Assembly (NCBI GenBank): GCA_934101175.1
Contig: CAKOQC010000006.1
Coordinates: forward strand, 7,292 to 71,291
Reading direction: 5' to 3'
DNA: 64,000 bases
DNA from: an uncultured Bacilli bacterium
GTDB taxonomy: Bacteria; Bacillota_I; Bacilli_A; RF39; UBA660
The position numbers were made by a program, and so were the translations under genes. This document shows, piece by piece, positions 45,422 through 56,191 of the stretch (position 1 is the stretch's first letter; the number at the start of each line of letters is the position of its first letter). The notes under the pieces are model-generated. The model ran no database searches. It was not told the origin of the DNA and worked only from the letters and a program-made list of their open reading frames with translations.

Positions 45422-45505
45422 ATGGATAATGAAAGGAAAATTGCAGGAGTTTATATTCGTGTTAGTACTCATACTCTTAAAAGTGAGAAAAAATTTAAAA
45501 AATAG
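45422..45505 (+). pseudogene. 5' stub (first 16 codons plus RBS) of a large serine recombinase gene whose remainder lies at 54419..56191; interrupted by an inserted element
   Basis: RBS 'aaggag' is 11 nt before the ATG. It translates as 'MDNERKIAGVYIRVST|HTLKSEKKFKK*'. 'YIRVST' is the catalytic-serine motif of serine recombinases. The frame degenerates after codon 16 at the junction. Confidence 0.7.
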
Positions 45506-47099
45506 ATTTGAAATTATATTTAATTTCAATATTTTTATCATTATCAATAGTAATTCTATCAATTATTGTTGATAATAATTCTCTACTTGGAGTTTTTAGT
45601 TTTAAAAGCTCATTTATTATATTTATGTATTGTGAATTATCTTTTGAATTTAATTTATTTTCTAATTGATATAATTTAAGTTCTAAATCGTGTTTATCAT
45701 TTTTTAATTTAGTCTTTTCTTGAGTAAGATTATTATATTGTCTTAAAAACATTTCTTCGTCAATAATACCTTTTAACTTGTCTTTGTAAATCTTATCAAT
45801 GTAAGTGTCTTGTAATTTTATATTATTTTCAAGTCTACTGATTTGATTTTCAAAATCTACTTTTAATTTTAAAGTCTTATCATTTTGTTTAAGTAATTCT
45901 TCAAAATTATTAGTTTTAACATATTTCTTACATTGTTTTCTAACATCTTTTAATATTTCATTTTCAAGTTCATAGTAATTAACTTTATGATTAGTGCATA
46001 AACCTCTTTTTGAATATTTTTTATAAAGAGAACAAATACAATATTCTTTTTCAACATATTCGCCGTTGGCTTTGGTGTATCTACTTCTATCAATACCCAT
46101 TTTATGACCACACTCTTTGCAGTAGAAAAAGCCTCTAAATAAATATGGAATTTCTTTGCCATAATTATTTTTGTTTTTATCAGCCATATTTTGGACGATA
46201 TCAAAAGTTTCTTTATCAATGATAGCAGGACAAGCACCCTCTACGACTATCCAGTCCTCTTTTGCATTTCTTCTACGATATTTCATTTTATAACTAACTT
46301 TATATTGTTTGCCTTGTGCTAAATTACCAATGTAAGTTGGGTTTTGTAAAATATCTCTAATAGTAGAACTTTGCCATAAACCATAAGTCATAGTTGGATT
46401 TTTATAGACTTTTCCTTTATAAACACTTGGACTTGGTATGTTTTCGTCAGTTAAAGTATCACTAATTGCTTTAATTCCCATACCACTTTTAGCCATATTA
46501 AATATTCTTCTAACAATAGGTGCTACCTCTTCGTCTATAATAAGTTCGTGTTTGTCGTATGGAATATTTTTCTTATAGCCATAAGGAACTGTTCCACCCA
46601 TAAATTTACCTAACTTTTTTTGTGAATTAAGAGTTGCTTTTACTTTTTTTGATGTGTCTTCAACATACATTTCATTAAGCATTGCTTTTAACATCAATTT
46701 ATTATTATCTTTATGTTTGTCAAAACTATCATAGTCATCACTTATTGCATAATATCTAACATTTTTTTTAGGAAAATATTCAGTAGCAAAAATCATACTT
46801 TGTGCCATATTACGACCTAAACGGCTTAAATCTTTAGTAATTACCATATTAATTTTTTTGTCGTCAATATCTTTTAACATACGATTAAAACTATCTCTAT
46901 CAAATTGAGTTCCACTAACTCCATCGTCAATGTAAGTTTCAACTACTTCTAAATCATTTTTGATAGCATATTCCATAATGTAATCTTTTTGATTAGAAAT
47001 GCTTTCACTCTCACTTTTTCCGTCCTCTAAATCTTTTAATGATAATCTTAAATATATACCAACTTTAAATGCTCCGTTCATAATTTTTTCTCCTTTCAT
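45495..47099 (-). CDS. Large serine recombinase (integrase) of the inner element
   Basis: 'VGIYLRLSLKDLEDG' holds the catalytic Ser of the resolvase domain and 'LSRLGRN' is present. A recombinase domain, a Cys4 zinc ribbon ('CKECGHKMG...CICSLYKKYSKRGLC') and a C-terminal coiled coil follow. Length is 534 aa. Confidence 0.85.
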   Translation of the reverse strand: MKGEKIMNGAFKVGIYLRLSLKDLEDGKSESESISNQKDYIMEYAIKNDLEVVETYIDDGVSGTQFDRDSFNRMLKDIDDKKINMVITKDLSRLGRNMAQSMIFATEYFPKKNVRYYAISDDYDSFDKHKDNNKLMLKAMLNEMYVEDTSKKVKATLNSQKKLGKFMGGTVPYGYKKNIPYDKHELIIDEEVAPIVRRIFNMAKSGMGIKAISDTLTDENIPSPSVYKGKVYKNPTMTYGLWQSSTIRDILQNPTYIGNLAQGKQYKVSYKMKYRRRNAKEDWIVVEGACPAIIDKETFDIVQNMADKNKNNYGKEIPYLFRGFFYCKECGHKMGIDRSRYTKANGEYVEKEYCICSLYKKYSKRGLCTNHKVNYYELENEILKDVRKQCKKYVKTNNFEELLKQNDKTLKLKVDFENQISRLENNIKLQDTYIDKIYKDKLKGIIDEEMFLRQYNNLTQEKTKLKNDKHDLELKLYQLENKLNSKDNSQYINIINELLKLKTPSRELLSTIIDRITIDNDKNIEIKYNFKSIF

Positions 47100-47480
47100 A
47101 TCTAACGGAACACATTTTTAATATACATACTTATTATACCACTTTTACCCTTATTTCTCAAGGTTTTCAGTGATTTTCTCGTTAAAATATGCGATTAAAA
47201 ATTGTTCCAAAATTTCTTGTAAAGTTTTACCATTTTCATTAAATGTACTTGTTATTTTCATAAGTTCACCTTTGACTTATGCCGACATAAGAATTTTATT
47301 AAATCCTTTCTCTTTCCTTAAGGCACTTACAATATAACATTTAAAAATAGACATAATCTCGTTCATAAAAATGCTGTAAATGTTCCAAAATCAAAACAAA
47401 AAAAGCCCATAAAATAAGGGCTGACTTAAAAAATGCTACCTATTTTTCGAGTAAAATAAGTAAAAAAAGATATAATTATT

Positions 47481-47530
47481 TATGATATTTTTTGATACTT
47501 TGTGATACTTTATGATACTTTATGATACTT
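47481..47530. repeat. Five tandem 10-bp direct repeats (consensus TnTGATACTT) with helical phasing
   Basis: The sequence is 'tatgatattt tttgatactt tgtgatactt tatgatactt tatgatactt'. It is followed by 'tccttatacgtgtatgtgtta', which resembles the attR-side sequence. Confidence 0.7.
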
Positions 47531-47819
47531 TCCTTATACGTGTATGTGTTATAATAATAATGAAAGGAAAAGTATATTTAAAGAAAAAAATATAAAAAAA
47601 CTATAACATTATATTTATTTGTTTAAGTCGAAAAATAGGTATTTAAAAAGCCTGAATGTCAATAAATATAAGGCTTTTATTATTTTTAAAATGGAACACT
47701 ATTTTAAAAAAAGTGCACCTTTTTTTGAAGATATTGTTTGTTATAATTAAAGCACAAAGGGAAAAGATAACGCGTTTGAAACTTTGTAAAAAGAATTAAA
47801 TGTTTAGAAATGAAAGGAA

Positions 47820-54019: not shown

Positions 54020-54083
54020 ATGCACCACCTATAATAAATAGTATAAATAAAGAGATAAGATTAAAGTTCTTATCTATATTTAA

Positions 54084-54317
54084 TTACTTATTTATTAATT
54101 TATTATAAAGTTTTCTTTCTTCAACATTGTTTTTTTTAAACTCCATAACAAATAAGGTTGTTAATTCTTTTAACTCTTTCTCTAAAAGTTTTCTATCTTT
54201 ATTACTTAATTTATTTTCTTTTAGCATTTGTCTTAACATAACAACTTCAATAAACATATTATTCATATCTTCAGTAATATTAAATCTTAAATCATTTAAT
54301 TTAGTAATTTTTTTCAT
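54084..54317 (-). CDS. Hypothetical small coiled-coil protein (77 aa) at the right end of the inner element
   Basis: ORF only. Confidence 0.2.
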   Translation of the reverse strand: MKKITKLNDLRFNITEDMNNMFIEVVMLRQMLKENKLSNKDRKLLEKELKELTTLFVMEFKKNNVEERKLYNKLINK

Positions 54318-54388
54318 TTTCTATAACTCCTTTATAATTTTATTGTATATCTTAAATGTGCTCCGATATAGATTATATAATACTTTGA

Positions 54389-56191
54389 TTATTTTTTTCA
54401 CTTTTATGTGTATGTACCGAAGATCAAGCAAGAGAAGGATTTTCACTTGGAGAACAAGAAGAAAAGTTACTTCAGTTATGTAAGTTTAAGGAGTTAGAAG
54501 TTTATAAGGTCTATAAGGATGCCGGTATATCAGCAAAAGATATGGAACATAGACCACAATTTCAAGAAATGCTTAAAGATATGAAGGAAGGAAAACTAAA
54601 TTATATTGTTGCCTATAAACTAGATAGAATAACAAGAAGTGTTAGAGATTTAGAAGAATTAATATCAGTATTAGAACAATATAATTGCTTTCTACTATGT
54701 GATAGAGATGATGTTAATACCTCTACTGCTAATGGTAGATTCTTTGTAAGAATGCTCACAGTATTATCTCAACTAGAAATAGAAATTGTATCAGAAAGAA
54801 CTAAATTTGGTTTAAATGGAGCCATTAAATCAGGTCATATTCCAGGACAACGACCATTTGGTTATAAGAGTGCTGAAGATAAAAGAATGGTTATAGATAA
54901 TACTACTCGCCCCTATGTAGAAAAGATATTTGATATGTATTTAGAAGGTAAAAGTTTTCAGCAAATTGCCAATTGCTTTAAAGAAAACAAAATATTTCCT
55001 AAAAAGAATTGGAAAGATACAACTATTCAAAAAATTATTGATAACAAAATCTATATGGGAGATTATGAGCAATATAAACGAATTGGTAAACAAGTAAATT
55101 TAGAATCAATAGTTTATATGAATGTTGTAGAACCTATTATATCTCGTGCTAAATGGGAAGAATGCCAAAGACAAAAAGAAAGAAATCAAAGAACTTATAC
55201 AAGAGATAGAGTTTATACTTTCTTTCAAAGATTAAAATGTCCTAATTGTAGTCGTATCATGAAATGTAAAGGTTCTGGTGGCACCAAAAGAAAGTATATG
55301 TACTACACTTGTGAGCACTGTCATATCAACTTTAACGAAGACCACGTAGAACATTTATTAAGAGATTTCATCTATGATTTACTAGAATATGATATGGCAG
55401 TTAAAAAGTTCTTTCTACCTGTTTTAGAGGATAAAACAAATAATATTGATACTACTTCTATTGATAAAGAGATTAGAGATTTAGAAAAACAAAGAAATAG
55501 AATTAAAAATTTGTATATTAAAGGCATTGTAGAAATTGATGATTTTAAAGAAGATTATAAACTAATTGAAGATAAACTTGCTAACCTTGAAAGTAAAAAA
55601 TTAGAATTAATTAATTTAGAAACTTTTAATTACTCTCCACACGAATTACTTGCAGAAAGAGATTTAGAAAGAGAAAAAATGATTAGACTTGATACCTTAA
55701 ATAGTGTTTTAAAGACTAAATGGAATGGTATGGACAAGTCTGAAAAACAAGAATTTATATCTAAATTTATTGATACTATTGAAATTAAAAAAGCTAGTAA
55801 AGGTAATTTGATATTAGAAAAGATTAATTTTAGAAACGGATTTATAAGACAATTAGTAAAGTTTTATGAGGCAGGTATATTTGATGTTGCAGTACCTGTT
55901 ATGGTTGGTAATAAAGAAGAAACTATTAAAGGTGGCAGAATGAATGAAGAACAATTAGATAAATATTTATCTAAAATGAATGAGCATTTTGAAACATCTT
56001 TTTATGAAATGTATGAAACAATTGATGAAGAAACTAATGAAATAACACTTGAATATCAACCAAAAGAAAATGAAAAAATTATAAGATTTGTAGCAATTTC
56101 ACCTAAAGAAAAGTTTCCTTTAACAGTAGATAATGTTAAAGATAAGTATGGAATTATTAGCTACAAAACAAATAAATTAGAAAGGATTTAA
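54389..56191 (+). pseudogene. Large serine recombinase of the outer element, N-terminally truncated by the insertion (no start codon; catalytic Ser codon replaced)
   Basis: The in-frame reading from the stop at 54386 gives '[10 protein letters not shown]|[18 protein letters not shown]...[13 protein letters not shown]', with no ATG/GTG/TTG before 54542. The recombinase domain, the '[28 protein letters not shown]' zinc ribbon and the coiled coil are intact. The stub 45422..45469 supplies the missing 'MDNERKIAGVYIRVST'. Confidence 0.7.

Follow-up and report, generated by a model that had tools for sequence, protein, structure and literature searches.

A small integrative element inserted between the catalytic serine codon and the following threonine codon of another mobile element's recombinase gene

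Introduction

What kind of DNA separates the two halves of a large serine recombinase (LSR) gene in an uncultured gut Bacilli bacterium, and what does it recognise there? The question is raised by a 64,000-nucleotide stretch of contig CAKOQC010000006.1 (assembly GCA_934101175.1, positions 7,292 to 71,291), referred to in the following as the window, in which about 9 kb of DNA with an LSR gene of its own lie inside the coding sequence of a second LSR. A preceding sequence-only reading had proposed that an integrative element split the resident recombinase gene of another mobile element at its conserved catalytic codons, and that excision could restore this gene. According to the analysis described here, the insert, denoted the guest, is very probably an LSR-driven integrative element that now occupies the LSR gene of a mobilizable island resident at tRNA-Gly, denoted the host island.

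A recombinase gene split with single-base precision

The stub open reading frame at 45422..45505 encodes MDNERKIAGVYIRVST followed by the unrelated codons HTLKSEKKFKK and a stop, while on the right-hand side a frame is open from 54416 to 56191, in which the first usable start is the Met at 54542. Joining 45422..45468 to 54418..56191 (45469/54419) yields an in-frame LSR of 606 residues with the Pfam domains Resolvase (1.5e-33) and Recombinase (1.4e-19), as the sequence-only reading had predicted; the register of the join is arbitrary within the GTAC common to both ends (45465-45468 and 54414-54417). In a search of 5.8 billion proteins, two intact 606-residue proteins (P0001 and P0002) match the joined protein with 100% identity over 100% of the length, and more than 100 further proteins are 95-97% identical to it. 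The contiguous YIRVSTEDQ sequence is thus present in intact orthologues, and the two fragments, which might have been unrelated, belong to one LSR gene cut at its catalytic Ser/Thr codons. The LSR body contains neither a frameshift nor a stop, and the gene reconstituted in silico equals the natural intact alleles (100%). The insert splits another mobile element's recombinase gene with single-base precision.

Uninterrupted alleles, which had been suggested as a check, are found in near-identical strains. In L009, the contig encoding P0002, positions 1..10047 correspond to window positions 35421..45468 (99.77%) and positions 10038..19630 to window positions 54408..64000 (99.97%, blastn), and the 8.95 kb between the matched flanks are missing. 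The neighbourhood is that of the window, namely Tex, a 90-residue gene, LSR, TnpV, relaxase, AraC-type regulator and coupling-protein-like gene, with the tRNA-Gly not scanned separately in this contig. A second empty allele, L047, was reached via the Tex protein and lacks exactly the insert. In both alleles the flanks are 99.8-99.97% identical to the window, the Tex/tRNA-Gly locus is the same, the gene is uninterrupted and the empty site reads CGTGTTAGTACCGAAGATCAA. Also by way of the Tex protein, an independent occupied allele with the same junction was found in a Hadza sample (L048).

In L050 (8526..9032), a further contig from one sample, the stub of the host LSR (..YIRVS) continues in frame into the central part of the relaxase (window position 45466 joined to 56941). 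Missing from it are the LSR body, TnpV and the 5′ portion of the relaxase gene. The two sides meet at a short stretch of similar sequence (GTTAGTGAAAT versus GTTAATGAAAT) away from the AC core described below, and the fusion is probably a deletion or mis-assembly rather than an LSR product.

Attachment sites and crossover

Comparison between loci narrows the crossover to the dinucleotide GT in integrase sense, which is AC in the sense of the host gene and makes up positions 1 and 2 of the Thr codon directly following the catalytic Ser (R-V-S/T-E-D-Q). The reconstructed attP is TTTTTTCTCACTTTTAAGAGTATGA-GT-ACATACACATAAAAGTGAAAAAAAT in integrase sense; across its junction it reads AAGAGTATGA-GT-ACATACACAT, and the reconstituted attB reads CGTGTTAGT-AC-CGAAGATCAA. 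The arms of attP match each other at 20 of 25 positions as an inverted repeat around the 2-bp core, a value that holds in three lineages, while the arms of attB are asymmetric (5 of 24 positions match). The inverted repeat of attP is unrelated to the host coding sequence, and attL and attR of the window have only GTAC in common. The consensus of the B′ arm, ACNGAAGAYCAAGCNNGNGARGG, has a single match in the window, namely the attR site, with 0 expected by chance.

At the right junction a degenerate mimic of the target had been noted (tgtgtatgtacc versus cgtgttagtact). The resemblance is real; its interpretation as a copy of the target is rejected, as the sequence is the inner part of the P′ half-site of attP. 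The similarity of this half-site to the inner half-site of attB is explained by the same recombinase subunits, which are expected to bind both.

Target specificity and orientation within the family

When genome and metagenome collections were scanned with the guest LSR, 20 further loci emerged whose LSR is at least 72% identical to it (72-100%). In 19 of these the element is positioned between the Ser and Thr codons of an LSR gene, in accordance with the proposal that the conserved YxRVSTxxQ codons are the target and that the same codon position would be occupied in other recombinase genes. The stub sides comprise 14 distinct B-arm DNA alleles, in which the Ser codons AGT, TCA, TCG and TCT are all present (examples are ..GVYIRVS, ..CGLYMRVS, ..CGIYTRVS, ..AGLYPRVS, ..AGLYLRVS, ..AAIYCRVS and ..CGLYLRVS), whereas the body sides comprise seven B′ arms, all of which fit the consensus given above. 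An interruption at this boundary would show as an RVS stub adjoining CTCACTTTTAAG. Those host LSRs that could be reconstructed are 38-55% identical to each other in pairwise comparison. Given this divergence and the 14 alleles, what the element recognises is the set of conserved codons of the catalytic motif rather than any individual gene; because these are the most conserved codons of the gene, one integrase lineage can enter divergent host LSRs. Since relatives of the guest split many different recombinase genes in gut bacteria, the element is a parasite of other mobile DNA.

The guest LSR gene itself does not contain the target motif. The N-terminus of its product, YLRLSLKDLEDG (beginning ..GIYLRLSLKDLEDG), lacks it, and the gene is therefore no target for its own integrase.

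In a sub-lineage whose LSR is 82-83% identical to that of the guest (L004, L005 and L019-L021), the element occupies the same position in the opposite orientation, and the attP core is AC instead of GT in integrase sense. Insertion orientation thus follows the polarity of the core dinucleotide, with GT-core and AC-core lineages lying in opposite directions at the same target AC, because the non-palindromic core dinucleotide alone sets the polarity, as is known for the serine-integrase mechanism (PMC10083194).

The junction of L025 (LSR 73% identical) at position 1933 reads ..TATGA-AA-TGCTGCCC and lies beside a NUDIX gene and a type I restriction-modification system; this may be an off-target site or a rearrangement. 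In L002 and L018 (Clostridium sp. CAG:914 and a contig of ERZ779737) the interrupted host LSR looks mosaic: the stub equals that of the window and the upstream 90-residue gene is 80% identical to its window counterpart, while the LSR body is 52% identical to that of the window and 76% to that of L003, with the switch at or a few bases from the insertion point. This pattern hints that guests in different host islands may recombine and shuffle host recombinase genes.

Circular form and retargeted relatives

One relative (L022), with an LSR 73% identical to that of the guest, was assembled as a contig of 11,308 bp; its two ends overlap by 55 identical bp, and it contains an uninterrupted attP, TTTCTCACTTTTAGGAGTATGA-GT-TCATACCCATAAAAGTGAGAAA. 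The terminal overlap and the intact attP indicate that reads span the junction and that a circular (or tandem) form existed in the sample. In the circular form the LSR gene, attP and the gene of a 77-residue protein (g77) follow each other on one strand, an order that is kept in most related loci reaching that end. Near the g77 end, at a place comparable to that of a 174-residue protein of the guest, L022 encodes a DnaB-type helicase (DnaB_C, 6.8e-43). For the element of the window itself, no circular attP form was found.

The integrase is exchangeable within this architecture. In L014 and L015, the backbone proteins are mostly 89-100% identical to those of the window (76% for the 255-residue protein and 65% for g77), while the LSR is only 56% identical to that of the guest. 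L014 sits in a collagen-like gene of Gly-Pro-Thr repeats, and so do L012 and L013, elements with an LSR identity of 59%. The same backbone combined with another LSR and another target shows that exchange of the integrase module retargets the element.

Among L012-L016 (LSR 56-59% identical), the junctions in the collagen-like genes read ..TATGA-AC-GGGGCCTACCGGACC and ..CGTGA-AC-TGGACCTACCGGGCC. The integrase protein of L015 is identical to that of L014, yet its junction reads ..GTGA-TC-CTGTACC and lies beside RloB and AAA_21 genes.

Gene content of the guest

The features of the guest and of the surrounding host island are compiled in Table 1. The assignment of an LSR at one end, an XRE repressor and an excisionase-like helix-turn-helix (HTH) protein, made previously from the sequence, agrees with the Pfam and PHROG matches, and all three LSR domains are present in the guest LSR according to Pfam. 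Several further proteins of the guest are ORFans.

Table 1. Features of the guest and the host island, in window coordinates (residue numbers refer to encoded proteins)
Feature	Position	Strand	Description
tRNA-Gly(tcc)	44841..44914	+	ARAGORN, Rfam; host island begins just 3′
h90, 90-residue gene of host island	45008..45280	+	homologue just upstream of targeted LSR in 14/20 clade loci (tblastn)
5′ fragment of host LSR gene	45422..45468	+	15 codons MDNERKIAGVYIRVS including catalytic Ser, plus AC of Thr codon; matches N-terminus of intact P0001/P0002, L009, L047
attL	45442..45493		B arm (host codons), crossover AC at 45467-45468, then guest P arm TCATACTCTTAAAAGTGAGAAAAAA; from cross-locus junction comparison
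Guest integrative element	45469..54417		8,949 bp counting one AC core copy; exactly absent from L009, L047
Guest LSR, 534 residues	45495..47099	-	Pfam Resolvase catalytic domain 1.4e-21, Recombinase 2.1e-26, zinc ribbon 1.2e-09
Sigma-70-like promoter match TTGAGA-17-TG-TATAAT	47133..47161	-	just upstream of guest LSR gene; strong, consensus match only
Non-coding control/origin-like region	47437..47641		5.3 copies of 10-bp repeat TTTATGATAC (47479-47531) framed by 57-nt imperfect inverted repeat
Conserved backbone operon	47820..50394	+	96, 115, 369 and 255 residues; kept in related elements
XRE/Cro-CI-type repressor	50525..50785	-	Pfam HTH_19, HTH_3 ~7e-10; PHROG transcriptional repressor 1.5e-12; divergent from cargo operon
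Variable cargo, three zinc-ribbon proteins	50883..52465	+	133, 174 and 186 residues; Pfam; 133-residue protein also matches DUF4190
HTH_17 (excisionase/MerR-like) protein, 54 residues	52783..52947	+	Pfam HTH_17 2.3e-13; PHROG excisionase families
112- and 174-residue proteins	53012..54019	+	174-residue protein with weak winged-helix or DnaD-like signal
g77, 77 residues	54084..54317	-	position kept in most related loci reaching that end, and in circular contig L022
attR	54391..54442		P′ arm TTTTTTTCACTTTTATGTGTATGT, crossover AC at 54416-54417, then B′ arm CGAAGATCAAGCAAGAGAAGG
3′ fragment of host LSR gene	54416..56191	+	591 codons; no start codon, no catalytic Ser
TnpV	56199..56552	+	Pfam TnpV 4.2e-31
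MobA/VirD2-type relaxase	56618..57919	+	Pfam Relaxase 2.8e-35
Coupling-protein-like ATPase	60915..62774	+	Pfam DUF87/HerA; weak TrwB and TraG signals

Between the guest integrase gene and the backbone operon lies a non-coding stretch of 720 bp. The repeat region embedded in it folds far better than shuffled controls (z = -5.3) and is a candidate origin or operator. In the backbone operon, the 369-residue protein probably starts at ATG 48530, giving 364 residues; its family comprises 389 homologues and matches no Pfam family. The predicted model of this protein is all-helical (predicted local distance difference test score 83) and found no informative fold match in a structure search. PHROG, NCBIfam and PADLOC searches gave no match for the operon proteins.

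The cargo region varies among otherwise near-identical elements. Its three consecutive zinc-ribbon proteins have alike N-termini of the form MA(L/M)IKC.(E/K)CGK.., and no match to a defence system was found for them. The gene at 53495..54019 had been labelled Rep-like. The label is weakly supported, by a PHROG match to DnaD-like proteins (E=0.006) and a match to the TubR winged helix (E=0.04). Pfam, PHROG and NCBIfam searches of the guest detected neither a recognised replication initiator nor a terminase, and a PADLOC search no defence family.

Directionality factors of LSRs are not known to have a common sequence signature. Judged from its family matches, the HTH_17 protein is a candidate directionality factor or regulator, and g77 is a second candidate directionality factor. 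A promoter scan of this AT-rich DNA is uninformative overall (95 sites found versus 93 expected), with two sites singled out; one precedes the guest LSR gene (Table 1), and the other is a promoter-like site (GTGAAA-18-TATAAT) at 54401..54372 on the minus strand, which reads into g77 and overlaps the conserved AAAGTGA of the attP P′ arm. Because of this overlap, integrase binding to the P′ arm could control g77.

The host island

That the split gene is part of another mobile element, as had been proposed, is borne out by the adjoining genes of TnpV, a relaxase and a coupling-protein-like ATPase, as well as by the recurrence of h90 and of an adjacent tRNA gene at other loci. Homologues of h90 with 37-80% identity are found in L002-L005, L010, L011, L017, L018, L020, L021 and L026-L029; at most of the clade loci without h90 the contig ends first. 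The protein matches no Pfam or NCBIfam family and may be a partner of the host recombinase, for example a regulator or directionality factor.

In the window, homology to the island of L002 ends at ~44908 (blastn), and the tRNA is the only structured RNA detected by Rfam. A tRNA scan of 11 other loci places the island just 3′ of a tRNA gene in 7 of the 11. The adjoining gene is tRNA-Gly(tcc) in the window, L003, L027 and L029, tRNA-Gly(gcc) in L010 and L028, and tRNA-Arg(cct) in L005, and the genes flanking the tRNA-adjacent islands differ between loci. Such a pattern fits a family of site-specific mobilizable islands. Compared with known plasmid relatives, the host LSR is at best 35% identical.

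Proposed mechanism

The guest is a small integrative element, probably with a transient replicon. Its integration is a conservative attP x attB recombination into the DNA encoding the catalytic motif, with a 2-bp staggered crossover at the AC of the Thr codon, and leaves a 15-codon stub with the Ser and a start-less body of 591 codons. As stub and body are separated and the body has neither a start nor the Ser, the host recombinase is null while the guest is resident; without its recombinase, the host island should therefore be locked in place. Precise excision would recreate the intact host LSR gene. The guest appears to be currently active, and its excision would need a directionality factor, HTH_17 or g77, under control of the XRE repressor. 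Transient replication might proceed via the iteron region, using the winged-helix protein or, in the relative, the DnaB-type helicase. Transfer from cell to cell would presumably depend on a helper, for which the relaxase and the coupling protein of the host island are the obvious candidates.

Several observations weigh against this reading or parts of it. The circle comes from an element only 73% related, and a tandem duplication could mimic a circle. L025 is the sole locus of the clade targeting LSR genes that lies outside an LSR gene. Pfam, PHROG and NCBIfam searches revealed no recognised relaxase, capsid or packaging gene in the guest and no origin of transfer (oriT), although an oriT may still be present, and DNA shared between guest and host island, as a common oriT would be, amounts to chance-level matches of at most 20 nt. 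As to the host island, its mobility is deduced from gene content and from the differing tRNA sites. No island-free site was found in the species of the window, where each recovered contig of the Tex locus either contains the island or stops short of it. Nor was the right end of the island found: the window and the loci end too early to reach it, and searching L009 for repeats brought up no convincing att-like candidate.

A more far-reaching proposal is that the guest family is an obligate hyperparasite of a single family of tRNA-adjacent islands (h90-LSR, plus TnpV and relaxase in the window), which uses the host's catalytic codons as a universal landing pad, immobilises the island while resident and, after an excision that re-arms the host recombinase, is carried to new cells by the relaxase and coupling protein of the island. 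It is offered tentatively and must be regarded as rather doubtful. If true, it would describe a three-tier system of cell, island and guest, in which the guest gates island mobility at a single codon.

Alternative explanations

Among the alternatives, the one that survives best differs from the integration of an LSR-driven element into the island's recombinase gene in evolutionary rationale only, the structure being the same. The guest might be a hitchhiker in a safe harbour, for which the catalytic codons are attractive simply because they are conserved, occur widely and are neutral to the host; it would travel passively with any carrier of the site, and the loss of the host recombinase would be a side effect with neither a regulatory nor an antagonistic function. 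The target is indeed the most conserved stretch of the host LSR gene, and the use of collagen-like repeats by the same backbone with another integrase suggests a choice of conserved or repeated sequences. As long as the guest occupies the gene, however, it could be passively co-transferred with an excising island only if some other source provided a recombinase in trans. This rationale is a serious possibility, albeit not the one we would favour.

Unlikely, by comparison, is a phage satellite resembling the phage-inducible chromosomal islands, or a small integrative replicon; such an element would be packaged by a helper phage or propagate as a plasmid, and only its attachment site would tie it to the island. 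A size of 8-11 kb, a terminal integrase gene, the divergent XRE repressor and the excisionase-like HTH protein would all suit it, as would the iteron-like repeats, the winged-helix protein, and the DnaB-type helicase of the relative with its assembled circle. Against a satellite, PHROGs gave no terminase, capsid-remodelling or other structural match; furthermore, no LSR in IMG/VR is more than 53% identical to that of the guest and no attP match was found there, while the best LSR of the GenBank phage collection reaches 33%. With no close relative in either collection, a viral origin of the guest is unlikely.

The sequence-only reading had also compared the locus to skin-like switches. Restoration of the host recombinase by excision, one part of that comparison, is borne out in silico and by the natural empty alleles; the other part, a regulated switch, is not. 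A domesticated switch would require that excision be programmed by a cellular or developmental signal, as for skin (sigK) or SPβ (spsM), the host recombinase being rebuilt only in defined conditions. Precise reconstitution is possible, among the guest genes are those of an XRE repressor and an excisionase-like HTH protein, and the genome has sporulation genes such as Spore_II_R. The guest is, on the other hand, polymorphic between nearly identical strains and its family occupies many different host genes and species in both orientations; the free circle with a helicase gene in the relative marks a moving element, and the interrupted gene is not cellular. A domesticated switch is thus very improbable.

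Finally, an artefact or decay, be it unrelated pseudogene remnants or a chimera of two contigs, can be dismissed with near certainty, since the two fragments join exactly into a protein of which intact copies with 100% identity exist, the body is free of frameshifts and stops, the same junctions recur in independent assemblies (L048, and L017 in another host gene) and the empty sites are precise.

Comparison with known systems

It is well described that small elements use conserved genes or the oriT of conjugative elements as integration sites (Guedon 2017, PMC5704250; PMC12904643). Such integrative and mobilizable elements (IMEs), for instance the streptococcal IMEs in the oriT of Tn916 and ICESt3 or IME_Rho_tet in MAFF2-encoding genes, resemble the guest in that they are small, often use a serine recombinase, have a nested attB and disrupt a host function. 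While IMEs target a transfer gene or oriT, the guest targets the recombinase gene itself at the catalytic Ser/Thr codons. Moreover, a canonical IME has its own relaxase and/or an oriT recognised by the helper, whereas no relaxase was recognisable in the guest by Pfam, PHROGs or NCBIfam. The hosts differ as well, being small tRNA-adjacent islands in uncultured gut Bacilli in contrast to the integrative and conjugative elements that harbour IMEs.

The genes interrupted by skin, SPβ and phi3T are cellular and connected with sporulation, and excision there follows the developmental programme of the mother cell. Like the guest, skin (sigK, with the recombinase SpoIVCA), SPβ (spsM), phi3T (kamA) and gin (gerE) are LSR elements that split an open reading frame which is rebuilt on excision. 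LSR elements that split cellular genes and restore the frame by precise excision are known (PMC5595907, PMC6957869). The guest is distinguished from these elements by an interrupted gene that belongs to a mobile element, by its polymorphic occurrence in multiple hosts and by the circle of its relative.

A serine-integrase element with attB inside a probably mobile element is likewise found in Mycobacterium tuberculosis. The prophage-like element phiRv1 has its attB in the repeated, probably mobile REP13E12, with several sites per genome. Its target is neither a recombinase gene nor a catalytic motif, and its directionality factor is of the known Xis type.

For the host island, the closest known elements are the transposons of the Tn4451/Tn4453 and Tn6104 type, with which it has an LSR gene, tnpV and a mobilisation relaxase in common; its relaxase differs from the Tn4451 type in being of the MobA/VirD2 type. 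In contrast to LSRs of the TnpX clade, only Resolvase and Recombinase domains and no DUF4368 were found by Pfam in the host LSR. TnpX itself belongs to the multi-targeting LSR clade. DUF4368 is common in that clade (Durrant 2022). The location of the host LSR by tRNA genes suggests site specificity, whereas TnpX has a 2-bp target site (PMC3158075). Nesting is documented in this group also, as Tn6104-6106 lie nested in a conjugative transposon; in the Tn4451/Tn4453 and Tn6104 type, the LSR gene lies terminally, with tnpV and the mobilisation relaxase after it (PMC3158075).

Isolated cases of LSR elements inside LSR genes may already have been catalogued. Two labels in a serine-integrase tree, Ade2.71.Recombinase_Resolvase and Cce2.56.Recombinase_Resolvase, appear in a supplement (Mageeney et al. 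2020, supplement of PMC7192596) and suggest, as TIGER labels, LSR elements within LSR genes of isolate genomes. The elements concerned are 56-71 kb in size as opposed to 8,949 bp for the guest, and appear there as labels only. In the main text of PMC7192596, no discussion of the catalytic-codon position or of specificity at family level was found, and the text of two large surveys of LSR targets (PMC10083194, PMC7192596) does not mention recombinase genes as targets. Apart from the two labels, full-text searches of the literature turned up nothing on LSR genes serving specifically as targets of LSRs.

The relationship may be one of antagonism, a gate on host mobility or the by-product of a conserved safe site. 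At this locus, conflict or dependence between mobile elements is plainly visible at sequence level: a recombinase gene is cut between the Ser codon and the next and is restorable in principle. Wide host range without promiscuity is explained by an integrase that targets codons held constant by purifying selection across a protein family. The natural set of integrases with mapped attP and attB, with its 14 variants of the target, both core polarities and a sister integrase retargeted on the same backbone, should be useful for studies of LSR specificity and for engineering, and elements of this kind will escape any annotation pipeline in which nesting is forbidden or 'fragmentary' recombinase genes are discarded.

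Nested integration into the conserved genes of other elements is already known, while no earlier description was found of a lineage specific for the catalytic Ser/Thr codons; the sister lineage with flipped polarity, the circular form and the retargeted backbone are further additions to what the known systems have revealed.

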